Positions 17,244-51,252 of a DNA stretch of 64,000 nt are shown one piece after another. Within the stretch, counting starts at the first letter, position 1; each line of letters begins with the position of its first letter. The stretch comes from Deltaproteobacteria bacterium (GTDB lineage Bacteria > Desulfobacterota > Binatia > HRBIN30 > JACQVA1). The notes under the pieces are model-generated. The model saw only the letters and a list, made by a program, of their open reading frames with translations, did no database searches and had not been told where the DNA came from. Position numbers and translations under genes: made by a program. The DNA is taken from NCBI GenBank assembly GCA_016178705.1, contig JACOST010000028.1, forward strand, positions 4,951 to 68,950, in the 5' to 3' direction.

Positions 17244-17723
17244 ATGACGATGAGCGTGGGGATCTGCATCGCCAGCGACGCCGATCTTGCCGCACTGGTG
17301 CGGCTCGCCTCCGCTTTTCGCGATCACCTCGGACGCTCGACGCCGACGGAGGCTGAGTTTCGAGCGTCGATCGCGCAGCTACTACGCGATCGACAGAGTG
17401 AGTTCTTCCTCGCCCGCGATGGTGGAGGTGCCGACCTTGGCTATGTGCAAGCTCGCTACCGCCACTCCGCATGGACTTCGGGGCTCGATATGGAGATCGA
17501 GGACGTCTTCGTGCTCAGCGGCGCGCGTGGCGGCGGGTGCGGACGACAACTGGTTGAGTTCGCGATCGCCCGCGCCGTCGAGAAGCGGTGTCGCCTGATC
17601 GGGCTCAACACCAACGAACGCAACGCCGGTGCGCTCGCACTGTATCGATCACTGGGATTTGCTGCCGAGCGCGCGTTGTGGAACGGCGCTCGGCAGCTCT
17701 GGCTGGAAAAGTCTCTGGGCTGA
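17244..17723 (+). CDS. GNAT family N-acetyltransferase
   Basis: Acetyl-CoA-binding motif RGGGCGRQLVEFAI...ALALYRSLGF. Confidence 0.75.
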   Translation: MTMSVGICIASDADLAALVRLASAFRDHLGRSTPTEAEFRASIAQLLRDRQSEFFLARDGGGADLGYVQARYRHSAWTSGLDMEIEDVFVLSGARGGGCGRQLVEFAIARAVEKRCRLIGLNTNERNAGALALYRSLGFAAERALWNGARQLWLEKSLG

Positions 17724-17744
17724 ATCGCGGGCGTTGACGGCTCA

Positions 17745-19304
17745 TCAGTTCAGGTCGAAGTCTGTCAGGCCATTGGTTCCCGGCACACCGGCGGGCGACG
17801 ACGCATCCGCTTTGGCGATGATGATCCCGCCGAAGAAACCCTGAAAGGGGAGCGCTCCATAGTACGCGAGTTGCTGGCCGTCGTGGCTGTACGCCGCCAT
17901 GCTGTTGGGCAGGATGATGGTGCCCGGCTGCGGGGTCTCGCCCGATCCATTGGGGTTGATGAACCAGATAAGCTGTCCCGTCGGCCGAGTGGACTGGAAC
18001 GCGATGCGCTGACCGTCCGCGCGCAACACCGGGAACTCATCGCGGAAGCTGTTGTTGGTCACGCGGGTGATGTTGGTTCCGTCGGGATTCATCAGATAGA
18101 TCTCCAGGTCCTCGGCCTTTGAGTCGTGCGCGATGTGGAGGGTCGAGGCGAACACGATGCGATTGCCAACCCAATGCGGCGAGTTAAATCGCTCGCCCGC
18201 GTCCGGCAGGATCGTCGTCGAGCCCGACCCGTCGGCGTTGATGACCTTGATCCGACCACGCCCCACGCCGTCGACAAAGACGATGCGATTGCCGTCAGGA
18301 CTCCACGACGGCTGTCCCACGTCGGACTCGTCCGGCGTCAGGTCGGCGCGTCCGGAGCCATCGGCGTTCATGGCAGAGATATGGTAGCGCAAGCCGCCGT
18401 TTTGGTCGCGCACACTTGCCGACCAGACGATGCGCATCCCGTTGGGACTCCATTCCGGATCGCGGTCGAACGCATCGGTGGTGTTGGTGAGATTGACCTT
18501 CCCCGATCCGTCGGTGTTGAGCAGCACGATATCGTTGACCAAGCCCGCATCGGGAGCGGCGCACACGAGGCGCTGGCCGCCCACAGTGCCGGTGGTCGGG
18601 GTGCGAGTTGGCGACGGTGTCGGCGTTGGGCTGGAATTGCTCACCGGTGTCGTAGGCGTGGCAGTGGCAGGCAGACGGGAATGCGTCGGCGTCGGCGTGC
18701 TGCCGTCCCCGGCCGCCACGGTTCCAGAAAAGGGCTGGCCGTTGATCGATATCATCAAGCTGCCACCACCCCCACCCAGGCCTGGCAATGTGCCGCTGAT
18801 GCTCACGTCGATGGTCCCGCCGTTGCCGTCGGGAATACTGCCGGTGACCGTGAAGACGCCGGTGTCCAAGTTGACGTCGCCGGTGATCGGACCGGAGGCG
18901 ATCACGGCCGACGCGCCGCCGAAGAAACCGGCCGCTGCCGCGTCGCGAATAGCGAACGTCCCGGTGACGCCTCCCGTACCGCCCACAGTCAGCGTCGCGG
19001 TGGCGCGGCGCCCATCGTTGAGCATTGCGGCGCCGAAGAACTGGCCAGTGAACGGACAGCTGTTTAGGGCGTTGTTCACGGCGACAATCAGCTCTTCAAC
19101 AGTCACTTCATTGTCGTGACCGGCATCGAACGACGGACACTGCTGCAGCGCCGTTGTGCCGAGCGCGATGTTGACGCCCAGCACCAACTCCTCGACGGTG
19201 ACCGCTCCATCGCTGCTGCAGTCGCCGTCGCATGCGCCCGAGGCCCAGGCACTCGGCTGCGCCAACGACATCGCCAGTATCACCGCAACAATCAGCTTCA
19301 ACAT
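17745..19304 (-). CDS. Secreted multidomain protein. It has a signal peptide, a pair of dockerin/EF-hand-like Ca-binding repeats, a Gly-rich beta domain, a Thr/Pro linker and a TolB-like PD40 beta-propeller
   Basis: Signal peptide MLKLIVAVILAMSLA. Two DGDCSSDGAVTVEEL / DAGHDNEVTVEEL repeats. PTPTPSPTRTPTT linker. Repeated DPEWSPNGMRIV / QPSWSPDGNRIV PD40 blades. Strong RBS GGAGGAGG. Confidence 0.8.
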   Translation of the reverse strand: MLKLIVAVILAMSLAQPSAWASGACDGDCSSDGAVTVEELVLGVNIALGTTALQQCPSFDAGHDNEVTVEELIVAVNNALNSCPFTGQFFGAAMLNDGRRATATLTVGGTGGVTGTFAIRDAAAAGFFGGASAVIASGPITGDVNLDTGVFTVTGSIPDGNGGTIDVSISGTLPGLGGGGGSLMISINGQPFSGTVAAGDGSTPTPTHSRLPATATPTTPVSNSSPTPTPSPTRTPTTGTVGGQRLVCAAPDAGLVNDIVLLNTDGSGKVNLTNTTDAFDRDPEWSPNGMRIVWSASVRDQNGGLRYHISAMNADGSGRADLTPDESDVGQPSWSPDGNRIVFVDGVGRGRIKVINADGSGSTTILPDAGERFNSPHWVGNRIVFASTLHIAHDSKAEDLEIYLMNPDGTNITRVTNNSFRDEFPVLRADGQRIAFQSTRPTGQLIWFINPNGSGETPQPGTIILPNSMAAYSHDGQQLAYYGALPFQGFFGGIIIAKADASSPAGVPGTNGLTDFDLN

Positions 19305-19371
19305 CGCTGTTCCTCCTCCGCCCGTATCGGTCAGATCAATGGCTTCCGATGCAGAAGGCGTTCAAAGCGAC

Positions 19372-19397
19372 TGAACAGTGTTCAGTGGCGGGTGAAC
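19372..19397. promoter_or_regulatory. Candidate operator: palindrome TGAACAGTGTTCA plus a downstream GTGAAC half-site, ~70 bp upstream of the start of 17745..19304
   Basis: Seen in sequence. Paralogous arrangement to 24197..24223. Confidence 0.55.
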
Positions 19398-19413
19398 AGA
19401 TGCCGTTTGGTCG

Positions 19414-22400
19414 TCAGAACTGCCAGCGGATCGGCAACCGCGGATCGGGGCGGTAGCTGCAGTAGGTCCCGGTCTTGATGGTGGTGGCGAGGTAGCGCCC
19501 AAGGTGGGCATCGCCGTCGCTGATGCGCTTGATCGTGGTCTTGATGGCGCGGGTCACGTTCACCCGCGCACGTTCGGCATCGGCGGCGCGTGCGGAGCCG
19601 CGGTTACCCAAGCCTGCGCCGGCCGCCAGTTGGTCGGCGAACATCTCGATCTCTTCGCGCAGTTTGCTCGCGCGCCCGAGGTCGTTAAATCGAGTCGCCT
19701 CGTCCAATTGGTCGCGCAGGTCTTCGATGCGCTGCTTGTCGGTGGTGCGTGCGCGCCCTTCGATTGCTGTCGCTGATGCCGTCGCCGGCGCCGCTAAATC
19801 AGTGGCGTGGAACTCGCGGCCGGGATGCTGCAGCAGTTGGCTGAGACAGCGCAGCCCCTTGGAATCCTTGAGGCGCAACAGAGTCGCGCCGCTACCGACG
19901 CTCCAGTACTGTCCCTCGAAGTGAAAGAGGCCGCGCACGCTGTCGAGTTGGTTGTCCTTCGCAGGTGACTGCTGGTGGTCAGAACCCGCGTGCGGCTCGG
20001 GTTGCCTGCGTTTGCTCTGCGGGCTGATCGTCCGAGCGGAACGCACGAGCCGGAGGCCTCCGCTCGCCGCCGCAACCGGGATCGGCTCTTCCAGTTCAGC
20101 GACAGCATGATCGCCCTCGGTGCGTACATCCAAGGTGCGCAGCTGCATCGCGAGGCTGACCATGCCGAGCGCTTCCGCTGTCGCGAGTGCGTGCGCCGCC
20201 AGGTCGCGCGCGCGCAGATGATCGCCGACGCGGCCGCGCGTCAACAGCGCGCAAGTGTAGGCGTACTGCGTGCGAGCGAGCCATGGTGGGCCGTCCATGC
20301 GGGCGTTGCGCGCCAATGCATCCTCGAAGTGCCGCGCCGCATCGTCCCATCGTGCCATCGTCGCCGCGAGGATGCCGAGATAGTGAGTCGCGGCACCGAA
20401 GCTGACGCTGGCCGCGTAGGCAATGGTGCTATCGACGTAGGGGAGCAACAGATCGTACAAGATGGCCGCGCGTCGATTATCGCGCAGGTATGCGCAGACT
20501 TCGGACAAGTACGGCAACACGCCCAGACGGCGTTCGCGCTGGAGATCGGCAAACTCGTGGTGCGCGACCTGTTCGAACTCGTAGCGGGCTTCCGCCTCCT
20601 GGTCCAACTCGCGGTGGACAAGTGCGAGAAATGTGCGCGGCACAGGGCTGAAGGGATAGCGTTCGACGAACACGTGGAGCATCGGCAACTGTCCTTCCAG
20701 TTGGCGGAGCTCGCGCTGTGCCACGAATGCTTGCACGAGGGGGTTGAGCCGAATCTCGGCGCGCTCGGCGAGCGGCGTGGCTTCCTGCGCGAGGGCGATG
20801 GCCTCGGTCCACTGTCCGCGCCACAGCGCTCGCATTGCGCGCAGGTTCGCGCCCATCCAGCGGTAGCGCGAACGACCCAACGCGGCGGCGAGCGGAGGAT
20901 AGGTTGCCAGCTCGGCGTCCAAACGATCGCCGTCACCGCCGTTCATCAGATCGATCAGGCGCCACATGCGCCCTTGGATCGCCAGCTCGCGGTCGCCGAG
21001 GCGATCGCCGAGTTGCGTAATCTCGTCGGCGATGGTGAGCCGGTCGGCGAGGTAGTCCGACCGCCACAGCACGAAGTGCTGCGCACTCAGCACGTGCGCC
21101 AGCGTCACCGGGTCGGCAAGCTCGCGCGCCATCGCCAGCGCGTGTCCAACCAAGGTGATGCCGCGCTCTCGATCGGAGACCGCCAGTTCCGCTGCCAAGC
21201 GCGCCAGCAAGCGGGCGCGCACAGCGGTCGGATCGCTGCCGAGGCCGGCGAGCGCTTCTTCGATCAGGGCCGCGACGGTGGGATCGGCGATGGATTGCGG
21301 CGCGCCGACCCCGCGGTCGGCGAAGCCGAGGGCGGCGCGCGCGAGCAGCGCCGGCGCCGCTAGGCGTCGAGCGATGGTGGCGGCGTGCGCAAACGTCGCG
21401 CGCGCGTCTTGATCGCGCCCACTGCCGAGTTGCGCTTCGCCGAGTCCGAGGAGCACCTCGCACCCCGCGGCATCCGTTTGGGTGTCGGTGAGGGCGAGCG
21501 CTTCGAGGGCGCGCTCGAACTGAATGGCGGCCTCTTCGTACGCGAACAGCGCGGCGGCGCGCTCCCCGGCGCGCACCGCGTAGCTGATGGCCTGGTGCGG
21601 ATCGCCGAGCGGTGTCGCGTGGAGAAAATGGTGCGCGATCTCGGCGTAGTGGGGTGCGAGATCGGCTGCGTCGAGTCGCTCCAAAATCTCCGCGACCTGT
21701 TGATGCATGCGGGCACGTTCACTCGGCGACAGATCACTGTACAACGTCTCGCGGATCAGCGTGTGCTGGAAGCTGTACCGCGACGATGCTCCGGGGAGCG
21801 TGGTGACGATGGCATTCGTGGACGCCTCGCCCAACAGATCGAGGAGCTGCGCCGCCGGTCGTTCGCACATCGCTAGCAGTGGTGCGAAGTCGAACTCTCG
21901 CCCGAGTACTGCGGCGATGTTGAGAACACGACGGCAGGCCGGTGAGAGTGGGCGCAAGCGCTGGCGGATCGCGTCGCCGACACCGTGCGGAATGGGCAAT
22001 CCATCGGGCGGGATCTCGGACAACCGAGCGGCGTGTTGCACGACCAATGTGCGCACCACTTCGTCGATGAAGAGCGGATTGCCTTCCGTTGTCTGATGCA
22101 CGGCTGCGACCACCGCGCGCGATGGCGCCAGCGCGAAGCCAGCCGTAATGAAGCGCGCGACATCATCGGCCGACAAGCCGCCGAGCGGCACGCGATGTCC
22201 TTCGCGGGCAATCGCCGCCAGCGTCTGCGCACACTCCGGGCGCGACGGCATCTCGATGTCGCGATACGTCCCGGCGATCAGCAGGTGCGCATCGCGCAGC
22301 TCGCGGGCGATGAACTGGAGCAGCAGGAGCGACGGTTGATCGGACGCGTGGAGGTCGTCGAGGATGAGCACAAGTGGACGCGCCGCGCCCGCACGCTTGA

Positions 22401-22926
22401 GCAGCCCACCGACGGCGCCGAACTGAGCGAAGCGCGCGTGTTCGGACGATAGCGCGGGTGGTGTCGGCGCCGGAAGATCCGGTTGCCACTCGATCAACTC
22501 GGGCACCAATTGCGCGATCAGCCCGGCCGTATCGCCGAGCAATTCGGTGCGCGCGGCGGGACCACGATCCCGCAGCACAGCGCGAATGATCTGCACCCAC
22601 GGCCAGTATGCGGGCGCTCCGCCACCTTCCCAACAGCGGCCCCAGAGAACCTGCGCGCCGCGCCGGGCGGCTTCGGCGGTCAGTTCCTCCGCGAGTCGCG
22701 TCTTGCCGATGCCGGGCTCGCCGGCGATGAGGAACACCCGCCCGCGCCCTGCCGCGGCATCGGCCAGTCCGGAGTAGAGTTCAGTGAGTTCGCGCTCGCG
22801 GCCAACAAACGATCGCGCCGTGAGCCGATGGAGCGCCTGGTTTGATTCGTTTTCCACCGGTTGTCCCGCGGCGTGCACTACTCTCGCCGCGGTCGCCTGT
22901 GTAGGTGCGGCGGCCGGGTTGGTCAA
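19414..22926 (-). CDS. Large AAA(AAA_16-like)-TPR regulator with an uncharacterised conserved C-terminal domain (paralog 1)
   Basis: Walker A LIAGEPGIGKTRLAEEL. Walker B LVLILDDLH. Long TPR/helical region. C-terminal ~200 aa (FEGQYWSVGSGATLLRLKDSKGLRCLSQLLQHPGREFHATDL...TTIKTGTYCSY) matches no domain I recognise, but is conserved in the downstream paralog. Confidence 0.8.
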   Translation of the reverse strand: MTNPAAAPTQATAARVVHAAGQPVENESNQALHRLTARSFVGRERELTELYSGLADAAAGRGRVFLIAGEPGIGKTRLAEELTAEAARRGAQVLWGRCWEGGGAPAYWPWVQIIRAVLRDRGPAARTELLGDTAGLIAQLVPELIEWQPDLPAPTPPALSSEHARFAQFGAVGGLLKRAGAARPLVLILDDLHASDQPSLLLLQFIARELRDAHLLIAGTYRDIEMPSRPECAQTLAAIAREGHRVPLGGLSADDVARFITAGFALAPSRAVVAAVHQTTEGNPLFIDEVVRTLVVQHAARLSEIPPDGLPIPHGVGDAIRQRLRPLSPACRRVLNIAAVLGREFDFAPLLAMCERPAAQLLDLLGEASTNAIVTTLPGASSRYSFQHTLIRETLYSDLSPSERARMHQQVAEILERLDAADLAPHYAEIAHHFLHATPLGDPHQAISYAVRAGERAAALFAYEEAAIQFERALEALALTDTQTDAAGCEVLLGLGEAQLGSGRDQDARATFAHAATIARRLAAPALLARAALGFADRGVGAPQSIADPTVAALIEEALAGLGSDPTAVRARLLARLAAELAVSDRERGITLVGHALAMARELADPVTLAHVLSAQHFVLWRSDYLADRLTIADEITQLGDRLGDRELAIQGRMWRLIDLMNGGDGDRLDAELATYPPLAAALGRSRYRWMGANLRAMRALWRGQWTEAIALAQEATPLAERAEIRLNPLVQAFVAQRELRQLEGQLPMLHVFVERYPFSPVPRTFLALVHRELDQEAEARYEFEQVAHHEFADLQRERRLGVLPYLSEVCAYLRDNRRAAILYDLLLPYVDSTIAYAASVSFGAATHYLGILAATMARWDDAARHFEDALARNARMDGPPWLARTQYAYTCALLTRGRVGDHLRARDLAAHALATAEALGMVSLAMQLRTLDVRTEGDHAVAELEEPIPVAAASGGLRLVRSARTISPQSKRRQPEPHAGSDHQQSPAKDNQLDSVRGLFHFEGQYWSVGSGATLLRLKDSKGLRCLSQLLQHPGREFHATDLAAPATASATAIEGRARTTDKQRIEDLRDQLDEATRFNDLGRASKLREEIEMFADQLAAGAGLGNRGSARAADAERARVNVTRAIKTTIKRISDGDAHLGRYLATTIKTGTYCSYRPDPRLPIRWQF

Positions 22927-22972
22927 GAGACGCGAGTAGCAACAAGGAAGCGGGCAGGCGTAAACGAGAAGA

Positions 22973-22998
22973 GTCGGCCCGCCTTGCGGCGGGCCGAC
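22973..22998 (-). terminator. Putative intrinsic terminator downstream of the second dockerin-like gene
   Basis: Perfect hairpin gtcggcccgcc-ttgc-ggcgggccgac. On the minus strand it is followed by TCTTCTCGTTT. A second GC hairpin lies at 23006-23040. Confidence 0.45.
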
Positions 22999-23056
22999 CG
23001 GTTCGCGGCTCGGCGCACTTCGGGAGAGCGCGCCGAGCCGTGAATAGGAAGATTCG

Positions 23057-24160
23057 TCAGTCCTTCGTCAAAGCGATCGCGAGCGCCAGCGGATGAAAGG
23101 GATCGCTGAACGAAACCTTTGAATACTGGCCGGCCAGACCGCCGGGGAAGAGCGAGTTCATAGTGAGGTTCTCGTTCGAGCTCCCGCCCGTCTTGTTGTA
23201 GAAAAATGCCCGCGGGCTCGCCACGGTTGCAATCACCGATGCGGTCGAAAGGAGATTCTTCTTGAGATCGGTGATCTTCAACTGCCCGCTGACCACTTCA
23301 ACTTTGATCTGCACTTGCCGATGATCGTTGGTCAGGTCGTTGTCGGCGTGACCGCTCCACGTACCGATCAAGTCGGCCGCGATACCGGGCGGATTGATGA
23401 GGCCGGTGGTCGGCGTCGCCGTCTGCGTCGGCAGATTGGTGTGCGTCGGGACCGGAGTGTTGGTCGGTATCAGTGACGTTGGCGTGATGGTCGGCGTCGG
23501 TGTTTGCGTCGCCGTCGGCGGGTGTGTTCGCGTCGGCGTAGGAGTGCTGCCGTCGCCGGTGACGATCGAACCCGTGAACACGGTACCGTCCAGGTTGACG
23601 CTGAGTGACCCGCCGCCGTGGAGACCGGGGAACGTACCGCCGAGATGGACGTTGTGAGTGCCGTCGCCGTCGGTGAAGCTGCCGTCGATGCTAAACGTGC
23701 CATTGTCGAGGTCGACCGAGCCGCTCAGCGACACGATCGCGATCACTGCGGCCGCGTTGCCCTGATCGAAGAGCGACGCCGACGCGGCTGAACGGATCGT
23801 CATGGTGCCGGTGACTTGGCCGTTGCCTTGTGCGACCAGATTGATGATGCCGGTCTGGCCATTGGCGAGCGCGACGGTACCGTAGAACTGGCCGGTGAAC
23901 GGACACGTCCCCAAGGCGTTGTTGACGGCGAGCACTAGCTCTTCAACTGTGACAGACTGGTCGTTGTTACTGTCGAATTGGTTGCACTGGGTGACCAAGA
24001 TGCTGCCGAGAGCGATGTTGACGCCCTGCACCAGCTCTTCGACCGTGACGACTCCGTCACTGTTGCAATCCCCATCGCATCCGGCGGCCAGCGCGCGTGG
24101 GCCGGTTGCTGCCAGTCCCAGCGCGGCCAATACGATCAACGTCCCGAATCGCTTGATCAT
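23057..24160 (-). CDS. Secreted protein with an N-terminal dockerin/EF-hand-like repeat pair, a Gly-rich beta domain, a Thr/Pro linker and a different ~130-aa C-terminal domain (paralogous N-terminal half to 17745..19304)
   Basis: Signal peptide MIKRFGTLIVLAALGLAATG. CDGDCNSDGVVTVEEL and DSNNDQSVTVEEL repeats. TPTPTRTHPPTATQTPTPT linker. RBS GGGGAGGA. Confidence 0.75.
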   Translation of the reverse strand: MIKRFGTLIVLAALGLAATGPRALAAGCDGDCNSDGVVTVEELVQGVNIALGSILVTQCNQFDSNNDQSVTVEELVLAVNNALGTCPFTGQFYGTVALANGQTGIINLVAQGNGQVTGTMTIRSAASASLFDQGNAAAVIAIVSLSGSVDLDNGTFSIDGSFTDGDGTHNVHLGGTFPGLHGGGSLSVNLDGTVFTGSIVTGDGSTPTPTRTHPPTATQTPTPTITPTSLIPTNTPVPTHTNLPTQTATPTTGLINPPGIAADLIGTWSGHADNDLTNDHRQVQIKVEVVSGQLKITDLKKNLLSTASVIATVASPRAFFYNKTGGSSNENLTMNSLFPGGLAGQYSKVSFSDPFHPLALAIALTKD

Positions 24161-24196
24161 GATGATCCTCCCCAGTCGGGGGGGCGTAACAAATCG

Positions 24197-24223
24197 TTGA
24201 ACAGTGTTCAATTCGGTTGAACG
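24197..24223. promoter_or_regulatory. Candidate operator: perfect palindrome TTGAACAGTGTTCAA plus a downstream TTGAAC half-site, ~40 bp upstream of the start of 23057..24160
   Basis: Seen in sequence. Near-identical to the site at 19372..19397. Confidence 0.55.
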
Positions 24224-24310
24224 AATGAAAATTTTGGCTTGTAGGTGTGCAATCATCGCTCGCCATCTCGTGGCTTGCACAAGAAGAATTGAGCGATCTC
24301 CCCGCTCGTC

Positions 24311-24378
24311 ATTCCGGCGAAAGCCGGAATCCAGGCACGGACCCCACGCGTCGCCTGGATACCGGCCTTCGCCGGTAT
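24311..24378 (-). terminator. Two tandem hairpins downstream of regulator paralog 2
   Basis: attccggcgaaagccggaat at 24311-24330 and ataccggccttcgccggtat at 24359-24378. Confidence 0.35.
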
Positions 24379-24434
24379 GACGACCCACTGTGAAAGCGCG
24401 TTGAGCAGGGACAAACGCGCCCAAACAATTCCAG

Positions 24435-27400
24435 CTACAAGCGCCAGCTCTTCGGCCAACGTGGATCGGGTGTGTAGGAACAGAACGTGCCGGTCTTGAT
24501 GGTGGTGCTGAGATGCCGGCCCAACGCTGAATCGCCGTCGGCAATTCGTTTCAGCACCGCTTTGATGGCGCGGGTGACGTTGACGCGAGCGCGTTCGGTT
24601 GCCGATGGCCCGCTGCGTGTACGACCGTGCAGACCAACCGCCCGCGCGAGTTCGCGCGTCAGAAACTCGATCTCGTTTTGTGTGCTGGTAATCCGCCCGA
24701 GGTCGTTGAAGCGGGTGGCTTCTTCCAACTCTGCGCGAAGACTTTGCAACTGGCGCTTGTATGCCGCCCGTGCTTGCGGGTCCAGCAGTGCCCCAAGGTC
24801 GCCGAGATTGCCGGCGCGCAACCCGAGTTGTTGCCGTTGCTCGTCGCTGAGTTGGTCGATCTGCGCCGCGGCGGGAGTCACACTGTCGGGCTTGTGAGCG
24901 ATCAAGTCGAGCGCATGAAATTCCCGGCTTGGGTGGCGCAAGAGATGTGCGATGTAGCGCAGACCCTTGGTGTCCTTGAGGCGGAGTGGGGCCATCCCTT
25001 CGCCGACGGTCCAGAACTCCCCTTCCAGACGAAAGCTGCACTCGGCAGTCGTAGCGCCGGTGGTCGCCGGGGAATGCTGCGGTGGAGCCGCGGTGATGGC
25101 TCGCCCGCGGTGTTTCGCCGGGAAACTCAGCACGCGGCCGCGAGTGGAAGCGCCCGACGGCTCCGCATCGTGCAGCGCGGAGGCATCGCCGCTGGCGAGC
25201 GCGCGGGTGATCGGTTCGCGCTGCTGCGCCGATGACGGCTCCAGACGCGCTACGTCGGCCAATGCTTGCGCGCGCTCGGCGAGCGGCGTCATCCCCAACT
25301 CGCGCGCGGTGTCGTGGGCGTGCTGCAACAGATCGCGCGCGTGTTCGCGGGAATTCGCGGCACGGAGCGCGGGCCCCGCATCCACTAGCATGCGAGCGTA
25401 GGCGTACTCGGTGGCGGCCACCGCCGGCCGGCCTCCGGCGGCTAGACTGCGCGCGCGCGCATCTTCGAAGTGTTTCGCGGCCTCATCCCATCTCTCCAAG
25501 GTTGTGGCCAGGAGACCGAGGGCGTGGAAGCCCGGGCCGAAGCAGTGCCGCGGACCGAACGAGATGAAGCGCGAACCAAACCGGAACAGTCGCTCATACA
25601 GCAGGGCCGCCGCGTGGCGATCGCCGAAGTGCGCGCACAGCTCCGCCAACCACGGCAGCATCGGTAGGAGCGCGTTGGTGCGCACGAGATCGACGAAGTC
25701 GTCGGCCGCCAGGCGACCGTACTCGGCCCGGGCCTCGGCGTCGTGTCCCTGGTCGATCTGTATCAACGCCAGCGCGCAGCGGATGATCGGCACGTGCGGC
25801 ATCTGTTCGACCCCGCGCCGCGCGATCATTTCCGCGACCTCGTACTGGCCGAGCGCCCGCTTCGCCACGTAGGCCTGAAAGCCGACGCTGCCCAGCGCAG
25901 TGTCGTCGCGCACCCGCTCGGCGAGTGCGCCAATCTCTTGGCCAAGCGCGTCGCTTTCGGCGAAGCGCCCGAGCCACAGGGCACGCATCGCTCGCAGCAT
26001 GATGGTGTTGCTGAGGTAGCGGGGTTGGCGCAGCTCGTCGGCGAGTCGACTGCACGCGTCGAGTTCGCGTTCCCACTCGCCGCCACCCACTCCCATCTCA
26101 ATGACGTCGAGCAACCGCCAGGTGTGCGCTTGCAGTGCAAGCTCACGATCGTCGGCACTCTCGGCGAGCTGAATGCCCTCGTTGGCGAGGCTGAGCCGCT
26201 CGTCGACGTCGGGCGAATCCCACAGCGCGAAATGGCGCGCATTGACGGCGTAGGCCAAAGCCGCCGACTGGCCGCAGCGGCGCGCCATCTCGACCGCTTG
26301 CCGGCTCAGTGCGGCGCGCCGCTCCTCGGCGTCCGAGAAGTACAGTTCGGCCGCCAGCCGCGCCAGTATCCGTGCGCGCAGAGGATGGTCGTGCTCGGCC
26401 AACCGCACCAGCGCTTCTTCGAGCGCGGCCACCAGAACCGGGTCGACGACTCCACCGCGCGGCAGTCCGTGACCGATGCCGCCGAGCGCGAGCACCGCCC
26501 GCGCGAACGAGTCGGACGCATTCGCGTACCGTGCGCGCTCTGCCGCACGCAGAAACGTCTCCCGCGCCTCGCTGGTGTGCCAGGCGCGCGCCTGCGCGTT
26601 GCCCAACGCCAGCAGCAGCTCGAACTCCCGCTGGGGGTCTGGGGCCCCGAGGACGAGGGCGTCGAGAGTGCGTGTGTAGTGCGCTGCCGCGTCTTCGTAC
26701 GCCAACAAGTCCGCCGCGCGGCGCCCGGCGCGCTCACCGTAGGTGATGGCCTTGGTCAGGTCGCCGGCGGGCGCGGCCTGGAGAAAATGATGGGCGAGCT
26801 CGGCGACATGGGCGTCGGGGTCGGTGGCCGACAGCGTCTCCAACACCTCGCCGATGCGTTGGTGCAAACTCAAACGTTGTGCCGCCGGCAGATCGTCGTA
26901 CACGGTCTGCCGAATCAGCATGTGCGTAAAACTGTACCGAGTGGTGATCCCCGGTAGCTTGGTGACGATGCCCGCGGTGATCGCTTCGCTGAGGATGTCG
27001 AGGACGTCGGGTGCGGGCAGCTCGGACACCCGTTGCAGCGTCAGCAGATCGAAGTCGCGACCGATCACCGCGGCTATGCTCACCACGCGCTGACAGGTCG
27101 CCGACAGCGGTCGCAGCCGCTCGTGCGTGACTTCACGAATCCCGGCTGGAATCCTCAGGCGCTCCGCGGTCGCATCAGCGAGTGTCAGGTCGCGTCCTTC
27201 TGCCAGCAGCCAGCGCACGACTTCATCGACGAAAAATGGATTGCCGTCAGTGGTGCGGTGCAGGGTCGTGATGACCGCGGGCGGTGGCGCGATCACAAAC
27301 GTGCGTTGAATAAAATGAGCGACGTCGGGTTCGGGCCAGCCGCTGAGTGGTAGGCGGTGGCCGTTGCGGGCCACGTCGCTCAGCAGGCGCGCGCACTCAG

Positions 27401-28166
27401 GTTGACGTCGCACCTCGACCTCACGGTAGGTGCCGATCAGCAGCACTCGCGCGCTGCGCAGTTCCCGTGCGGCGAACTGCAGCAACAACAGCGACGGGTC
27501 ATCGGCCGCGTGCAGATCGTCGAGCAGGATCACGAGCGGCTGGTCCACTGCCACCCGCTGCAGGAACGTGGTCGTCGCATCGAACAACGGAAAGCGGGCC
27601 TGTTCGGACTCGATCGTCGACGCCTGCGATCCGGCCGGAATGCCGGCCACGCGCTGTCGCAGGTCGGGCACCAGGGACGCGATGCACGACGCCCCGCCGC
27701 CGAGATGGTGCGCAAGTGCGTGTGGATCACGGTCGCGGATCAACGCGCGCAGGATCTGGATCCACGGCCAAAAGGCCGGCGCGCCGCCGCCTTCCCAACA
27801 CCGGCCCCACAGCACCTGCGCGCCACCGGCGCTCGCCGTTGCGGCGAGTTCTTCCGCCAGCCGCGTCTTGCCGATGCCCGGCTCGCCGACGATGAGGAAG
27901 ACGCGGCCGCGCCCGTTCAGCGCGTCGTCGAGTCCGGTGCGTAGCTCTGTCAGCTCGCGGTCGCGGCCGACGAAGGCGCGCGTGCCCGGGCGATCGGGGT
28001 CGGCGCTGGTGGTTGTCTGCCGAGGGTCACTCACGTGGGGTTGGTTAGTACGTGATCGGACGCATACGTCAAGAGACGAATGCCCGAGTCGCCGACAATC
28101 GCGGACGCGCTGTCCGTGGTTTCGCTTTCGGCGGGCTCGCGCTAGGGATGCGAGCCACAGTGCCAC
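24435..28166 (-). CDS. Large AAA(AAA_16-like)-TPR regulator with the same uncharacterised C-terminal domain (paralog 2). The true start may be the in-frame GTG at ~28034
   Basis: LIVGEPGIGKTRLAEEL, LVILLDDLH and TPR region are collinear with paralog 1. The C-terminal FRLEGEFWTVGEGMAPLRLKDTKGLRYIAHLLRHPSREFHALDL...TTIKTGTFCSY matches paralog 1. Confidence 0.8.
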   Translation of the reverse strand: MALWLASLARARRKRNHGQRVRDCRRLGHSSLDVCVRSRTNQPHVSDPRQTTTSADPDRPGTRAFVGRDRELTELRTGLDDALNGRGRVFLIVGEPGIGKTRLAEELAATASAGGAQVLWGRCWEGGGAPAFWPWIQILRALIRDRDPHALAHHLGGGASCIASLVPDLRQRVAGIPAGSQASTIESEQARFPLFDATTTFLQRVAVDQPLVILLDDLHAADDPSLLLLQFAARELRSARVLLIGTYREVEVRRQPECARLLSDVARNGHRLPLSGWPEPDVAHFIQRTFVIAPPPAVITTLHRTTDGNPFFVDEVVRWLLAEGRDLTLADATAERLRIPAGIREVTHERLRPLSATCQRVVSIAAVIGRDFDLLTLQRVSELPAPDVLDILSEAITAGIVTKLPGITTRYSFTHMLIRQTVYDDLPAAQRLSLHQRIGEVLETLSATDPDAHVAELAHHFLQAAPAGDLTKAITYGERAGRRAADLLAYEDAAAHYTRTLDALVLGAPDPQREFELLLALGNAQARAWHTSEARETFLRAAERARYANASDSFARAVLALGGIGHGLPRGGVVDPVLVAALEEALVRLAEHDHPLRARILARLAAELYFSDAEERRAALSRQAVEMARRCGQSAALAYAVNARHFALWDSPDVDERLSLANEGIQLAESADDRELALQAHTWRLLDVIEMGVGGGEWERELDACSRLADELRQPRYLSNTIMLRAMRALWLGRFAESDALGQEIGALAERVRDDTALGSVGFQAYVAKRALGQYEVAEMIARRGVEQMPHVPIIRCALALIQIDQGHDAEARAEYGRLAADDFVDLVRTNALLPMLPWLAELCAHFGDRHAAALLYERLFRFGSRFISFGPRHCFGPGFHALGLLATTLERWDEAAKHFEDARARSLAAGGRPAVAATEYAYARMLVDAGPALRAANSREHARDLLQHAHDTARELGMTPLAERAQALADVARLEPSSAQQREPITRALASGDASALHDAEPSGASTRGRVLSFPAKHRGRAITAAPPQHSPATTGATTAECSFRLEGEFWTVGEGMAPLRLKDTKGLRYIAHLLRHPSREFHALDLIAHKPDSVTPAAAQIDQLSDEQRQQLGLRAGNLGDLGALLDPQARAAYKRQLQSLRAELEEATRFNDLGRITSTQNEIEFLTRELARAVGLHGRTRSGPSATERARVNVTRAIKAVLKRIADGDSALGRHLSTTIKTGTFCSYTPDPRWPKSWRL

Positions 28167-29164
28167 CGCTGATCTCGATCCTGCTGCCCGCTTTGAACGC
28201 GGCCGCGACCTTGCCCGCGTGCGTGCGCAGTGTCTGGCGACAAACCGAGACGCGATGGCAATGCGTCATCGTCGACGATGGCTCGACTGACCATACGGCC
28301 GCGTATGTGCGCCAGGTCAGCGAACGCGACGCGCGCTTCACCATCGTCACGACGCCGCACCGCGGCTTGGTCGCGGCACTCAATACGGGTCTGGCGCACT
28401 GCCGCGGTCAGTTCATCGCGCGCATGGACGCGGACGATCTGATGCACCGTGATCGCTTGGCGCTGCAAGTGCGTGCGCTGAACCAGGCGCCGGCGTTGGC
28501 AGCGGTGGGCTGTCACGTGCGGCTATTTCCGCGCGCGCACTTACGCGACGGGCGCCGCGAGTATGAGCGTTGGCTGAATCACATCGATTCGCCCCGGCGG
28601 GTGCGCGAAGATGCCTTCGTTGAATGTCCGATCGCACATCCAACTTTACTGATCCGTCGCGACGTGCTGGCGGCCTTTGGGTATCGTGACGCCGGCTGGC
28701 CCGAGGACTACGATTTGGTGTTGCGCCTGCTCGTGTCCGGCCACGAAATCGGCGTGGTGCCGCGCCGCCTGCTGGCGTGGCGTGATGGTCCGGCGCGCCT
28801 GTCGCGCACGCACGCGATGTATGACTTGGCGCGTTTCGCCCCGTGCAAGGCGGCGTTTCTGGCGACGCACTTTTTGCGCGCGGCGGACACCTACGTGTTG
28901 TGGGGCTATGGCGAAACCGCGCGGGCGCTGCGACGGGCCTTGTTGGTGCACGGGAAGCGACCGGCCTATGTTGTCGAAGTGCATCGCGGCCGAGTCGGCA
29001 ACACAATTCACGGTGCGCCGGTGATCGGACCGTCGGAGTTGCCGCGCATCCCGCGGTTGCCGCTAGTCGCATCGGTGGCCGGCGAAACACCACGCCAGCA
29101 GATCCGCGCCGCCATGGCCGCGATGGGGTTCGTCGAGTTGCGCGACTTCATCTGCGCGGCCTGA
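28148..29164 (+). CDS. Family 2 glycosyltransferase
   Basis: ISILLPALNAA...VIVDDGSTD...RMDADD (DxD) motifs. Confidence 0.8.
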   Translation: MRATVPPLISILLPALNAAATLPACVRSVWRQTETRWQCVIVDDGSTDHTAAYVRQVSERDARFTIVTTPHRGLVAALNTGLAHCRGQFIARMDADDLMHRDRLALQVRALNQAPALAAVGCHVRLFPRAHLRDGRREYERWLNHIDSPRRVREDAFVECPIAHPTLLIRRDVLAAFGYRDAGWPEDYDLVLRLLVSGHEIGVVPRRLLAWRDGPARLSRTHAMYDLARFAPCKAAFLATHFLRAADTYVLWGYGETARALRRALLVHGKRPAYVVEVHRGRVGNTIHGAPVIGPSELPRIPRLPLVASVAGETPRQQIRAAMAAMGFVELRDFICAA

Positions 29165-34205: not shown

Positions 34206-34715
34206 ATGACGAAACGCAAGATGCTAATGATTGGCCTGGTAGCTGTTGGTATCTACGCAGCGGCCGCCGACGCGCAGCCGATCCCACCGGGGCCACCGAT
34301 GGAACACCATCATGAGGGACCCCATTGTGGGCACATGAAGGGTGGAGGTCCGGGACGGCTCATCCACTTGCTGCTGCGGTCCACTGATCTGACGGCGGAC
34401 CAAGAGACTCAAGCGCATCAGATTCTCGACGCGGGTCGCGTTGCTGTGCAGGACCTTTTCACCCAGTTGCATCAAGCCGATAACGATCTGGCGAATCTGC
34501 TACTCGGTGCGCAAGATGTGCTACCCGCTGCGTTGACGGCACAACAAGCGCTCATCACCCAGTTACAACAGCAGTTGGCACAACACGAAGCCGCCACCGT
34601 CTTGGCGATCCGCGCCATTTTGACGCCGGAACAGTTGGCCCAAGCGAGCGCCGCGTTGAGTGACATGGAGGCCCGGCACGCCGACGAATCGCGCCGCTTC
34701 GGAAATGGCGGTTGA
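34206..34715 (+). CDS. Periplasmic LTXXQ-motif protein (CpxP/Spy/ZraP family) with a His-rich segment
   Basis: Signal peptide. MEHHHEGPHCGHMKGGGPG. LTADQ / LTAQQ / LTPEQ motifs. RBS GGAGGT. Confidence 0.75.
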   Translation: MTKRKMLMIGLVAVGIYAAAADAQPIPPGPPMEHHHEGPHCGHMKGGGPGRLIHLLLRSTDLTADQETQAHQILDAGRVAVQDLFTQLHQADNDLANLLLGAQDVLPAALTAQQALITQLQQQLAQHEAATVLAIRAILTPEQLAQASAALSDMEARHADESRRFGNGG

Positions 34716-35335
34716 CCTGCACGCGTGTCGCAAGCGACGACGAGCGGCATTCAATTCCGTGTGCGGAGGACGGAACGGACGAGAGCGTGAAAGCGGCGGC
34801 AGCGAAAGATCAGTCAGACTACGACGCGCTCTTCCGGACGCACCATGCGCGCGTCGTGCGCTTGTGCCGACTCTTGCTCTCCGATCCAGACGAGGCTGAT
34901 GACGTGACGCAGGAGGTTTTTCTCAAATTGTTCCAAGCCTGCGAAAAATTGTCTCAAGCCTACGAACTGGGCGATCGTGAGATTGCCTGGGGAGCGTGGC
35001 TCACCCGGGTTGCCGTCAACGGGTGCCGGGATCGGCGACGCTCGGGCTGGTGGAAGTGGTGGCGCGAACGGCACGAGGAGTTTGCGGAAGCCAACCTACC
35101 GTCGGCGACACTCAACCCCGAGCAGCAGACGCTGAGTAACGAAGCCCGGCGCGGAATCTGGCGATGCTTCCGACAGTTGTCGGCGCGGCAGCAAGAAGTG
35201 TTCGCCTTGCGCCAATTGGAAGGCTGGTCGACCGAAGAGGTAGCGCAAACGCTCGGGCTGAGCCCAGGCAGCGTCAAGCGTCATCTCTATCGAGCGGTCC
35301 ATCACATGCGCACCGGGCTGGGAGGTTACCGATGA
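34712..35335 (+). CDS. ECF (sigma-70 family) RNA polymerase sigma factor (start uncertain)
   Basis: Region 2 DVTQEVFLKLF. Region 4 LSARQQEVFALRQLEGWSTEEVAQTLGLSPGSVKRHLYRA. Confidence 0.8.
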   Translation: MTCTRVASDDERHSIPCAEDGTDESVKAAAAKDQSDYDALFRTHHARVVRLCRLLLSDPDEADDVTQEVFLKLFQACEKLSQAYELGDREIAWGAWLTRVAVNGCRDRRRSGWWKWWRERHEEFAEANLPSATLNPEQQTLSNEARRGIWRCFRQLSARQQEVFALRQLEGWSTEEVAQTLGLSPGSVKRHLYRAVHHMRTGLGGYR

Positions 35336-35832
35336 ATCGATGCCTCGACGAGCGCGCGCTGCTGCGGATGTACACGCACGACGGTAGCGCCGCCGAACAA
35401 TCCCATTTGCGACTGTGTACGGAGTGTACTGAACACTACGACCAACTGGTTGGCGATCTTGAAACGATCGGCCACGCGCTCGCAACACCGCCACCGGCCG
35501 CCGTCAGCCGTCGCGCGTTGCCCGCTCGGATGTCTTGGGTGCCTGCCGGAATCGCGGGTGCGGCGCTCGCGGTCGTGATGCTAAATTTCGCCTGGGTTCG
35601 GCATTCATCGCCAGTACAGGTGGCGACTCGCCTTCACAACGTCTCGGCGTTCGCCGGGGACTTGTCCGATGCGCTGTTTGCGACGTCCGACGCGAGCGCC
35701 TTTGTGCCGCTAGCTGAGGAGGCTCCATATCTCGAGGCCGCGCTCAACGCCGGCCAACCCTGCACGCAGGATCAATTTTTCCGTGGCGCGTGCACTGATC
35801 AATTCTCCGCTCTCATGATTGAAGACGAGTAA
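35332..35832 (+). CDS. Anti-sigma factor with a zinc-finger (ZAS-like HxxxCxxC) N-terminus and one TM helix
   Basis: HLRLCTECTEH motif. TM VPAGIAGAALAVVMLNFAW. Its ATG overlaps the sigma factor stop. Confidence 0.7.
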   Translation: MNRCLDERALLRMYTHDGSAAEQSHLRLCTECTEHYDQLVGDLETIGHALATPPPAAVSRRALPARMSWVPAGIAGAALAVVMLNFAWVRHSSPVQVATRLHNVSAFAGDLSDALFATSDASAFVPLAEEAPYLEAALNAGQPCTQDQFFRGACTDQFSALMIEDE

Positions 35833-35860
35833 GGACGAACAAGATGGAGGAGATTGTCAC

Positions 35861-36358
35861 ATGTTGAAGTCCAAACTGCTGTTCACCGGGTTGGTGTTGG
35901 CCAGCCTGACCTCGGCTCCGCTGCACGCGCAACCGATGGGCGGACCTCCGATGGGCGGACCGCCGATGGGCCGCATGATGCACGGAGACGATCCGGCGAT
36001 GATGCTCCACATGGTCCTCAAACAGGCCAATCTCACAGCCGACCAGCAGGATCAGGTGCGGAAAATCATGGACGCCGATCATCAGAATTTGCGCGCGCTG
36101 TTTTCGAAATTGGAGGCGGCCAACCGTCAGTTGGCCGATAAGCTGTTTGGCCCGGGAACGGTCCAGCCGGCCGACTTGACGCCGCAGGTGCAGCAGATCA
36201 CCCAGCTCCGACAACAGTTGATGGAGCAAGGCGTGAAGACCGCCTTAGCCGTGCGGGCCGTGCTCAGCCCGCAACAACTGGCCAAGGTTGCGCAGACCAA
36301 AGATCAACTCGAGAAGCTGCAAACGCAGATGCGCAATATTATCGAGGGCAGCGACTAA
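35861..36358 (+). CDS. Periplasmic LTXXQ-motif protein (CpxP/Spy family) with a Met-rich segment
   Basis: Signal peptide. MGGPPMGGPPMGRMMHGDDPAMMLHM. LTADQQDQ / LTPQVQQ / LSPQQL. Confidence 0.75.
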   Translation: MLKSKLLFTGLVLASLTSAPLHAQPMGGPPMGGPPMGRMMHGDDPAMMLHMVLKQANLTADQQDQVRKIMDADHQNLRALFSKLEAANRQLADKLFGPGTVQPADLTPQVQQITQLRQQLMEQGVKTALAVRAVLSPQQLAKVAQTKDQLEKLQTQMRNIIEGSD

Positions 36359-49233: not shown

Positions 49234-49623
49234 TCACGCTGTCTTCAGGCCCAAATGGTCGACCATCGGATCGAAGTCGCGATCGGAGTAGAGCAGCGGC
49301 AATTTCCGCTCAATGCAGTAGGTGCCGATCATCACGTCGACCGTCTTTCGCACCGTCACGCCGGCGGCGCGCAGCGCGCGGTAGTTGCGTGCGGCGCGAA
49401 CGGCCAGGGTAGGACCGAACATGCTGACCACGGGGAACACTCTGAGCAGGCGGTATGCACGGCCAAACGCCTGCTCGCTCCGGAAACCTTGTAACACCTC
49501 GGTCAGCACGAGATCACCAATCACGATGGGTTGCTCTCCGAGCGCTTCGTGGAGTCGGTCGGTTTGCGGTGTCGCGCGACCGTTGAAGTAATCGATCCAC
49601 ACCGACGAATCGACGGCGATCAT
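49234..49623 (-). CDS. vapC: Type II toxin VapC (PIN-domain ribonuclease)
   Basis: MIAVDSSVWIDYF...TEVLQG...PIN acidic residues. 4-bp overlap with the upstream antitoxin. Confidence 0.85.
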   Translation of the reverse strand: MIAVDSSVWIDYFNGRATPQTDRLHEALGEQPIVIGDLVLTEVLQGFRSEQAFGRAYRLLRVFPVVSMFGPTLAVRAARNYRALRAAGVTVRKTVDVMIGTYCIERKLPLLYSDRDFDPMVDHLGLKTA

Positions 49624-49820
49624 GCACGGCCATCGGCTCGCATGGCGTCCAGATCACCCTCCCAGCGCAGCTTGCCGCGCCACGCCTTGAGCGCGCGCTG
49701 GCGTTGCAAGCGCACGAGCACGCGGAGCCCTTCCTCCACAACGGCTCGCTTGGTCCGGATGCCGGTGGCTCGCTGCGCTGCGGCGATCAGCTTCTCATCA
49801 ATCACGATGTTGGTTCGCAT
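49620..49820 (-). CDS. vapB: Type II antitoxin VapB
   Basis: 66 aa. MRTNIVIDEKLIAAAQRATG. RBS GGGGAGA. Confidence 0.75.
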   Translation of the reverse strand: MRTNIVIDEKLIAAAQRATGIRTKRAVVEEGLRVLVRLQRQRALKAWRGKLRWEGDLDAMRADGRA

Positions 49821-50015
49821 GCATCTCCCCTCGATGTGTATGAGCGAGCATACGTATACACACTCTTGGTGCGAGCGACAACGATTTCGTTCTATGCAGG
49901 ATGGCGGCGAGAAACGTGCGGCGACGCCGAATCGCCGCACCGCGAGGATGCGCTCGGAGGCGTGATCGAGGCGGGCGATGCCAGAACGACATCGCCCGCC
50001 CGTGTGTGCGGATGC

Positions 50016-51038: not shown

Positions 51039-51252
51039 ATGCACCCTCCTTAACGCTATTGGCAGACGGAACAACTGCGACTGTTGGGCTCCGCTCATCG
51101 TACCCATCCTCAACCTACCCGCTTCGGCAACTAGAGGACTTCGAGCAAGAAGTCAAGTGCAGAAGCTGCTGTAAGTAGGTAAACAGTCGTGTCTATCTAG
51201 TCTTGAAGCTCGGCCGTGCAATGCCCGGCGCCGGCGGTGGACATGACCGTCG

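Follow-up and report, generated by a model that had tools for sequence, protein, structure and literature searches.

A 64-kb stretch (64,000 nt, hereafter the window) of contig JACOST010000028.1 from a Deltaproteobacteria bacterium of the Binatia (GenBank assembly GCA_016178705.1) carries two tandem pairs of minus-strand genes, in the order R2-S2-R1-S1. Each pair consists of a gene for a large regulator-like ATPase (R) followed by a gene for a secreted protein (S), and each gap between R and S holds an oriented, promoter-like element of ~42 bp. The two pairs are paralogous, R and S remain neighbors in the genomes of related soil bacteria, the element is conserved in front of S genes, and it is associated family-wide with the C-terminal output domain of R, which is predicted to be a winged helix split by a long insertion. 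We lean toward the reading that R is a signal- and ATP-dependent transcription activator of the STAND type (signal transduction ATPases with numerous domains), whose oligomerized split winged helices would bind GTTC/GAAC half-sites over the -35/spacer region of activator-dependent promoters, including that of the adjacent S gene. DNA binding by R is inferred from the predicted fold and from comparative genomics; that R activates and does not repress, and what signal it senses, are likewise proposals.

Two paralogous pairs and a conserved element between R and S

All four open reading frames (ORFs) were found, and they form two copies of one pair, as a first-pass annotation of the window had read them. 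R1 and R2 are 45% identical across 1200 aligned positions, while S1 and S2 are 48% identical in their N-terminal ~250 residues and unrelated beyond. A deposited 'PD40 domain-containing protein' (P0266) has exactly the sequence of the S1 product. The same annotation had seen a duplication followed by diversification, which agrees with the identity profile of the R1/R2 alignment: 67% in the P-loop, ~50% up to residue 500, 31–43% in residues 500–1000 and 51–60% in the last 170–200 residues. Thus, the presumed sensor repeats have diverged most, and both ends of the protein, the P-loop and the output domain, are the best kept. The C-terminal domains of the secreted proteins differ, as had been noted: after the signal peptide, the loop pair, a first eight-stranded barrel and the TP linker comes a PD40 propeller in S1 and a second eight-stranded barrel in S2. 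The duplication of the module predates the divergence of related Binatia genomes; the R sensor region and the S C-terminal domain have diversified, and the output domain and the promoter element have stayed unchanged.

The annotation had also staked its reading on the two genes being neighbors in other genomes, and they are: R lies immediately upstream of an S-family gene at seven of eight further R-S junctions, in six further contig contexts, several of them in unrelated neighborhoods. A close relative (locus L080, S2 83% identical) keeps both pairs and the whole gene order, from a family 2 glycosyltransferase (GT2) gene through R2, S2, R1 and S1 to a CoA-transferase gene. Two more distant Binatia contigs (L001 and L086) carry R2-S2-R1 without S1. 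Single R genes in unrelated neighborhoods are followed directly by an S-family gene at L082 and L085, and at L083 one small S-like gene stands between the two. R proteins adjacent to S genes are mutual best matches (43–58% identity), ahead of other proteins of the same architecture. Among 79 genome loci picked only for the output domain, an S-type neighbor was present in the ortholog L001 alone, so that R-S pairing is a feature of one Binatia clade and not of the whole domain family. A dockerin-like match at L072 was rejected, being the C-terminus of an unrelated convergent gene. On a metagenome contig (L093, 296-2050), two tandem S-family genes follow one element, with no regulator in the available 209 nt upstream.

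A near-identical palindrome had been reported from each R-S gap, and the two copies (ACTGAACAcTGTTCAGT in the R1-S1 gap, core 19372-19384; TTGAACAcTGTTCAA in the R2-S2 gap, core 24198-24210) indeed share a 13-bp core, TGAACAcTGTTCA, which occurs in the window only in these two gaps. With up to two mismatches allowed, the core matched four times, namely on both strands at the two sites, where 0.52 matches were expected; none of 100 shuffles reached four. The palindrome is the center of the ~42-bp oriented element GTTCa-N7/8-TGAAC-N3-5-GTTC-N11-ACGCC. An alignment of the upstream regions of all S genes gives (T/C)GTTCa-N7/8-TGAACAyTGTTCA-N5-TT(T)GAACGCC as the conserved block, with TTGTTACGCC in place of TT(T)GAACGCC in the S2 of the window and its ortholog, and with a diverged block at L082. 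In the S1 element ACGCC lies at 19357-19361, 52 nt before the ATG, and in the S2 element its distance to the ATG is 22 nt, an interval that holds the Shine-Dalgarno sequence GGGGAGG. The element stands upstream of every S-family gene examined, orthologous loci and one locus without R (L084) included. The palindrome of the first-pass annotation is real and conserved; it is not a self-contained operator but the middle of a larger promoter-like element. Two known kinds of site were considered for it and rejected: LexA/Cheo boxes for their spacing (GAAC-N3-GTTC here rather than N4) and sigma-54 promoters for the missing GG/GC at -24/-12.

The regulators, their output domain and the element across genomes

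Both regulators match AAA_16 (PF13191) above the Pfam cut-off (E 1.9e-26 for R1 and 1.1e-25 for R2), with clear Walker A (GEPGIGKT, pattern GxxxxGK[ST]) and Walker B (LILDDLH, pattern hhhhDD) motifs. They had been described as AAA-TPR proteins of ~1200 aa. The ATPase part of that description stands; the tetratricopeptide repeat (TPR) part falls under the Pfam cut-offs, with TPR_12 at 24.6 bits against 30.1 and with TPR_2 and TPR_19 likewise weak. NCBIfam gave only a partial match to TOMM_kin_cyc, a kinase/cyclase fusion family, spanning the ATPase and repeat portion. In Pfam, neither regulator matched LuxR/GerE (PF00196), nor BTAD at E<=0.1. The window holds a third AAA_16 protein (44666-49147, minus strand; 1493 aa) with zinc ribbons, a Ser/Thr kinase, AAA_16, repeats and an adenylate/guanylate cyclase, that is, with the same ATPase module as R and a different output.

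The C-terminal domain shared by the regulators was called unrecognized from the start, and at sequence level it is: the intact domains have no match in Pfam, NCBIfam or PDB. The family is nevertheless large, with 540 matches at ~50% identity in a word-indexed search and, in an exhaustive profile search, 16,647 representatives of 50%-identity clusters at E<=1e-3 (12,723 at <=1e-10). The domain occurs at the C- or N-terminus of AAA_16 proteins of ~1100–1300 aa, as stand-alone proteins of 180–340 aa on long contigs, and behind receiver (REC) domains and zinc ribbons; these varied positions and fusions mark it as a portable output module. Public annotation of family proteins reads 'AAA family ATPase', 'tetratricopeptide repeat protein' or 'hypothetical protein'. 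Full-text literature searches, with no query dedicated to either, gave no description of the domain or the element.

An AlphaFold2 model built from a 36-sequence alignment (mean predicted local distance difference test score, pLDDT, 84) has three N-terminal strands, a helix (25-35), a short strand, a helix (43-48), a low-confidence segment (49-87), a helical hairpin (88-134), a helix (147-169) bearing the near-invariant ERARVNVTRAIK and a C-terminal beta-hairpin. With the insertion removed, the model has the topology of OmpR/PhoB effector domains (beta-sheet, a1, b5, a2, a3, beta-hairpin), and in place of the a2-a3 'transactivation loop' it has ~95 residues, disordered in 49-87 and helical in 88-134. 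In PhoB and OmpR that loop is the contact surface for RNA polymerase. The Foldseek list for the model is rich in OmpR-family domains (CosR, ToxR, PhoB, KdpE, ArlR, GlnR, CadC and EmbR). A match to a known non-DNA-binding family had been named as the outcome that would speak against the regulator reading; no such family was hit, and the predicted fold is a winged helix of the OmpR/PhoB type. Armadillo-repeat matches in a PDB profile search of spliced domain sequences were judged spurious.

The exact palindrome TGAACANTGTTCA occurs at one of the 79 family loci, and hexamer enrichment around family genes is unremarkable; a relaxed, gapped pattern (GAAC-N2-5-GTTC-N9-13-ACGCC) was needed to reveal the element across the family. 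This pattern gave 54 matches in 1.52 Mb, compared with 0–2 in reversed or first-order Markov controls and 1–3 for scrambled or re-spaced patterns. GTTC and ACGCC are separated by exactly 11 nt in 46 of the 54, the GAAC-to-GTTC spacer is 3–5 nt, and GGTG follows ACGCC after 5–8 nt. When the three GTTC/GAAC sites alone were searched for, ACGCC still lay exactly 11 nt downstream in nearly all forward-oriented matches. A hidden Markov model of the element found it in 43 of 88 loci, with two instances only in the window. In 16 of 49 instances, a family gene on the same strand ends no more than 400 bp upstream of the element, and in eight more a family gene lies within 400 bp downstream of it. Lineages with the element beside family genes are Binatia, Rokubacteria and Methylomirabilota, Actinomycetota (Baekduia, Conexibacter, Thermoleophilia and others) and Chloroflexota. 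The genes downstream are varied, among them genes for S-family and other signal-peptide or membrane proteins, a kinase and a universal stress protein; in Baekduia and Conexibacter, it is the family gene itself. A near-match to the palindrome at L038 was discarded as spurious, since it lies inside a coding start.

Element presence differs with the predicted recognition helix: it accompanies 34 of 46 genes with ERAR-(V/I/L)NVTRA, 2 of ~33 with ERAR-QS(I/V)xKT, in which the domain is N-terminal, and none of six with ERAR-VSVTRA (Chloroflexia). Such tracking is what would be expected of a helix that reads DNA. The subfamily with an N-terminal domain and the helix ERARQS(I/V)TKT (L003-L039 and others) has a conserved upstream element of its own, GGCGTGAAAA-N4-CCGCACAA-N22-27-GGTGGTACGATT, for example at L003 ~150–200 nt upstream of the domain start; GGTGGTACGATT resembles an extended -10, and GGCGT is the reverse complement of ACGCC.

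As an unbiased sample, metagenome contigs were scanned with the Binatia-type element TGAACAYTGTTCA-N5-TT-N3-ACGCC, which returned 25 contigs. An S-family N-terminus lies downstream of the element in 10 of them. It also precedes S-like lipoproteins without the dockerin pair, and genes for a globin, an H-NOX protein (HNOB; 286 nt away and less certain), a legume-lectin-like secreted protein and a DUF2510 membrane protein (contigs L090, L106, L109 and L107). The element is thus the mark of a dispersed regulon in which S genes adjacent to R are an enriched subset. The first-pass description of a 'dedicated' cassette does not strictly hold, since the element is not private to the pair: it goes with a domain subfamily across phyla and precedes genes without a nearby regulator. 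These targets, together with a cupredoxin domain in some S members, could hint at a haem, gas or redox theme, which is speculative.

A proposed signal-transduction unit and competing explanations

Each cassette would, in our model, be a one-component signal-transduction unit. R would be a cytoplasmic ATPase of the STAND type, in which an AAA_16 P-loop is followed by a long sensor region of helical repeats and, at the C-terminus, by the output domain; there, a flexible linker and helical hairpin take the place of the loop that precedes the recognition helix. A signal sensed by the repeats would lead to nucleotide-dependent oligomerization, by which several output domains would be brought together. 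Clustered in this way, they could bind the repeated GTTC/GAAC half-sites of the element over the -35/spacer of the S promoter and switch on transcription of the downstream secreted-protein gene. The inserted hairpin probably touches RNA polymerase.

The geometry of the element can be read in these terms. A consensus scan found no sigma-70 promoter in 17500-28400. At S2, at its L080 ortholog and at one L072 target, no more than 21–22 nt separate the end of ACGCC from the ATG, and a canonical Shine-Dalgarno sequence lies in that interval, which would place the transcription start within a few bases of ACGCC. It follows that nACGCC would lie at about -10 and TGAAC at about -35 (16–18-nt spacer); the inverted GTTC would fall within that spacer, and the GTTCA further upstream at around -50. 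Because of the Shine-Dalgarno sequence within the same 21–22 nt, we favor ACGCC as a -10-like element rather than as the half-site nearest the promoter, followed within a few bases by an extended -10. The S2-R1 gap contains two strong hairpins (RNA fold z = -5.9, with none of 200 shuffles equally stable), one of which scores as a terminator, and the pair probably ends transcription between the two cassettes. The terminator scan found none between R and S. The transcription units would thus be [R2 S2] and [R1 S1], each with an internal regulated promoter, and read-through from R into S is possible. Both R genes are preceded by a shared string, cgtctcTTGAC (28045-28072 and 22890-22920, minus strand). 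For R2, TTGACG-N16-TACTAA ends 10 nt before the GTG, as seen by eye at a place where the consensus scan found no sigma-70 promoter; this suggests a short-leader or leaderless R2 transcript from its own promoter.

Several observations weigh against this model. The winged helix is an assignment at the level of predicted fold and from one model; the individual Foldseek E-values are ~1, Pfam returned nothing for the domain with its insertion spliced out (PF00486, Trans_reg_C, included), and hhalign against the PhoB DNA-binding domain gave a probability <1%, also with a single OmpR-like sequence from the loci. The correlation between helix and motif is confounded by phylogeny and domain position and is not phylogenetically independent. 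Streptomyces homologs (32–40% identity) lack the element. An R output domain ends 40–110 nt upstream of the element in 6 of ~16 informative metagenome contigs, several contigs have 3–5 kb upstream of the element yet no R, and at L084 a PD40-type S gene beside IS21 genes has the element without R. Because of these contigs and L084, the link between R and the element is not strictly local. With the same recognition helix in R1 and R2 and nearly the same element in both cassettes, the model does not explain how S1 and S2 would be controlled separately; two sensors that converge on the same targets are as likely as two insulated circuits. Finally, the -35-like TGAAC, the CG-rich, -10-like ACGCC and their 16–18-nt spacing resemble promoters of extracytoplasmic function (ECF) sigma factors.

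This last resemblance supports the most serious alternative, which we consider unlikely: that an ECF-type sigma factor encoded elsewhere uses the element as its promoter, with the R and S genes in its regulon or with R modulating the sigma factor by protein contact, and that the R C-terminal domain does not read DNA. ECF promoters have GGAAC/TGAAC at -35 and a CGT-rich -10, and the element likewise has GAAC at about -35 and a CG-rich pentamer at about -10 with 16–18 nt between. The many element-preceded genes with no R nearby (globin, H-NOX, lectin-like, Usp and S-like lipoproteins) look like a dispersed regulon, in Baekduia the element lies upstream of the family gene itself, and the window does contain an ECF sigma gene at 34712-35335. 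By eye, no similar motif was seen upstream of that gene. The match to ECF promoters is also incomplete, as their -10 is CGTC whereas the element has ACGCC, plus an equally conserved inverted GTTC in the spacer and the upstream GTTCA. The element co-localizes with the output-domain family and not with sigma genes: a jackhmmer search found sigma-70-family genes in only a few of the 88 loci, never adjacent and not consistently near the element or family genes, and the element clusters tightly at family-gene boundaries in five phyla. The element comes and goes with single-residue differences in the predicted recognition helix, the modeled domain has a DNA-binding fold, and the domain is the sole output of receiver-domain proteins. 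The ECF gene of the window (Sigma70_r2/r4) belongs to a plus-strand stretch (34712-36358), in which a probable anti-sigma ORF and a Metal_resist (Spy/CpxP-like) gene come after it.

R might instead bind the element as a repressor on the -35/spacer and be released on signal, so that S is de-repressed. Half-sites that overlap the presumed core promoter and a perfect dyad across the -35/spacer, which is typical of operators, fit such an arrangement. It appears quite improbable to us, given that there is no recognizable sigma-70 -35 or -10 able to work unaided, that the rigid N11 spacing between half-site and ACGCC is typical of polymerase-docking activators, and that characterized STAND transcription factors such as MalT and AfsR are activators (see also PMC10936776).

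Much further from what was observed is the explanation that the palindromes are incidental (terminators of R, RNA leaders or repeat debris) and the R-S adjacency has no regulatory meaning, for which we see hardly any room. The palindromes do lie just past the R stop codons, and a repeat resembling repetitive extragenic palindromes (REP) or miniature inverted-repeat transposable elements (MITE) sits in the R2-S2 gap. Yet the arms are AT-rich with a 1–3-nt loop and no T-tail, both R-S gaps fold like shuffles (z -1.2 and -0.4) and have no match in Rfam, the half-sites are invariant rather than covarying, and the element is kept where the flanks differ, including at loci without R; the REP-like repeat is separate and is missing from the orthologous gap of L080. 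That R is an antiviral STAND (Avs-like) defense ATPase with S as effector or partner is equally far-fetched, as its large AAA_16/STAND and repeat architecture with weak nSTAND3 and BrxC/D P-loop matches is set against PADLOC matches at P-loop level only (E>=4e-4, nothing significant beyond), no nuclease, protease or TIR effector, a predicted DNA-binding fold in the terminal domain, a Sec-exported partner and a neighborhood of housekeeping metabolism.

Gene models, secreted proteins and relation to known regulators

The coordinates of the locus are collected in Table 1. The S2 gene most likely starts at the ATG at 24160, because the N-terminal signal peptide results and the product is identical to a deposited protein (P0261); the 495-aa ORF from 24544 is too long. 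That spurious ORF (translation ...SGFRRNDE...) is due to the REP/MITE-like insertion in the R2-S2 gap, which lies outside the logic of the cassette. R2 most likely starts at the GTG at 28034 rather than at 28166, as the longer ORF overlaps the divergent GT2 glycosyltransferase gene.

Table 1. Features of the R-S locus, in window positions.
Feature	Position	Strand	Description
S1	17745-19304	-	519 aa; secreted; signal peptide, two EF-hand/dockerin-like loops with four Cys, Gly-rich beta domain, TP linker, PD40 beta-propeller
S1 promoter-like element	19357-19398	-	TGTTCA-N8-TGAACAcTGTTCA-N5-TTTGAACGCC; nhmmer E 4e-7
R1	19414-22926	-	1170 aa; STAND-type regulator: AAA_16 P-loop, helical/TPR-like repeats, predicted C-terminal split winged-helix domain; coordinates are those of the maximal ORF, exact start uncertain
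R1 C-terminal output domain	19417-19929	-	~170 aa; insertion shorter than in R2 (alignment, family search)
Two strong GC hairpins after S2	22972-23043	-	second hairpin (22972-22999) followed by a T-rich tail; terminator scan and RNA fold; outer limit of the first set by eye from the fold
S2	23057-24160	-	367 aa; signal peptide, two EF-hand/dockerin-like loops, eight-stranded beta-barrel A, TP linker, eight-stranded beta-barrel B
S2 promoter-like element	24183-24222	-	GTTCA-N7-TGAACAcTGTTCA-N5-TTGTTACGCC; nhmmer E 1e-7
REP/MITE-like inverted repeat	24308-24381	.	GTCATACCGGCGAAGGCCGGTATC ... GATTCCGGCTTTCGCCGGAATGAC; within the R2-S2 gap; sole copy in the window
R2 C-terminal output domain	24438-25040	-	201 aa; predicted OmpR/PhoB-like winged helix with ~95-aa insertion
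R2	24435-28034	-	1199 aa; paralogous STAND-type regulator; L080 ortholog 1204 aa

Both secreted proteins begin with a hydrophobic leader followed by Cys and carry two 12-residue EF-hand-type loops (DCNSDGVVTVEE and DSNNDQSVTVEE), each with a helix after it, and four conserved Cys. The N-terminus had been called dockerin/EF-hand-like. Its loops do fit the 12-residue pattern by eye (DxNxDGxVTVEE plus helix, twice), and the model has two helices, but dockerin remains a resemblance rather than a database match: EF-hand_1 reaches 19.9 bits against a cut-off of 25.4, Pfam gave no Dockerin_1 (PF00404) match in S1 or S2, and no cohesin partner for S was identified. In these respects, S differs from known dockerin and F-hand Ca-binding modules. 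The PD40 repeats of S1 are clear (PF07676, E 2.9e-19), and since its match to TIGR02800 (TolB) is partial and far under the equivalog cut-off, S1 is not TolB itself. In the S-family alignment, a C-terminal barrel of the S2 type is what members commonly have; some carry an inserted cupredoxin or other domain, and S1 has a PD40 propeller in place of the barrel. The nearest known folds for the barrels are TbpB/NHBA/avidin-type eight-stranded barrels. Export, together with a Ca-binding dockerin-like module joined to calycin-type eight-stranded barrels or to a PD40 propeller, suggests that S binds a ligand or is anchored at the surface. Elsewhere in the window (49234-54525, minus strand), genes for a PIN-domain toxin, an OmpA-family outer-membrane protein and a 1090-aa AsmA/DUF748 protein indicate that the source organism has a diderm envelope.

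The logic of the R-S pair appears analogous to that of MalT and the large ATP-binding regulators of the LuxR family (LAL), and especially to that of AfsR, in uniting a STAND ATPase with repeats and an output domain for DNA binding. A defining feature of each named family is missing from R, which has no LuxR helix-turn-helix, no BTAD and no Trans_reg_C signature, and whose predicted winged helix is interrupted. MalT/LAL proteins are, like R, of ~900–1200 aa, with an N-terminal AAA_16-type P-loop, a helical-repeat sensor and a C-terminal DNA-binding output (predicted in the case of R), and they are signal- and ATP-dependent activators, as proposed for R. Their output is a LuxR/GerE helix-turn-helix, for which R has no PF00196 match. 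In actinomycetes, AfsR and other large Streptomyces antibiotic regulatory proteins (SARPs) combine an OmpR-type DNA-binding domain, BTAD, NB-ARC/NOD and TPR, which parallels the STAND-type NTPase, TPR-like repeats and predicted winged-helix output of R. In AfsR, however, the DNA-binding domain is N-terminal, BTAD follows the winged helix and the ATPase is NB-ARC, whereas in R the output domain is C-terminal, there is no BTAD, a ~95-aa linker and helical hairpin lie inside the predicted winged helix, the ATPase is AAA_16 and the Trans_reg_C sequence signature is missing.

The target sites invite the same comparison. SARP/AfsR boxes are short repeats that overlap the -35/spacer of a poor-consensus promoter at a fixed distance from the -10 (PMC10936776), as the half-sites here appear to do. 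SARP sites have only direct repeats of 11 bp, with a period of 11 or 22 bp and the 3' repeat 8 bp from the -10; the R-S element has same-orientation half-sites 20–21 bp apart, N11 to ACGCC as the putative -10, and inverted half-sites (GTTC/GAAC) too. PhoB/OmpR effector domains share the predicted fold and topology of the R output, and a receiver domain stands in front of the domain in some family members; the hexamer half-sites of PhoB/OmpR abut or replace the -35, as in the element. They differ in a short a2-a3 loop and control by phosphorylation, against a ~95-residue insertion, STAND ATPase control and no profile similarity in R. On a plasmid of Streptomyces sp. NBC_00564 (L087, 6534-6634), a homolog 40% identical in the domain and with the helix LNVTKA lacks the GAAC/GTTC element; GTGCCGCC-N12-GTGCCGCC-N5-GCACGCC stands after its stop codon and ahead of two genes, first a hypothetical one and then one for a choice-of-anchor D protein. 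This sequence may be a variant site that retains the ACGCC part.

A wider proposal can be put forward, which we hold tentatively and with less confidence than the model for R itself. Transcription factors with the ~200-aa domain would form a huge family that lacks annotation, of at least 16,000 clusters (at 50% identity) from Binatia, Actinomycetota, Chloroflexota, Methylomirabilota, Myxococcota and other groups, and the split winged helix of the domain may read the cross-phylum element (GTTCa)-TGAAC-N3-5-GTTC-N11-ACGCC at promoters without a sigma-70 -35 or -10. The hairpin could dock on RNA polymerase and so adapt or substitute for sigma recognition, and STAND, receiver and zinc-ribbon sensors might converge on one dispersed regulon of secreted barrel, globin/H-NOX and stress proteins.

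The finding is real, and it is more general than the first-pass reading from sequence could show. At this locus, if the model is true, the S genes would encode inducible exported proteins in which dockerin-like modules are joined to calycin-type barrels, a PD40 propeller or a cupredoxin domain. The split winged helix would then be a new structural way to couple DNA recognition with polymerase contact, comparable to the 'sigma adaptation' of SARPs. As a promoter signature that is conserved and easy to search for, the element could help to delimit regulons in uncultured soil phyla, Binatia among them. If the domain binds the element, thousands of proteins that at present are named only 'AAA family ATPase', 'TPR protein' or 'hypothetical protein' could be read as transcription factors that a signal activates and whose DNA target can be predicted.

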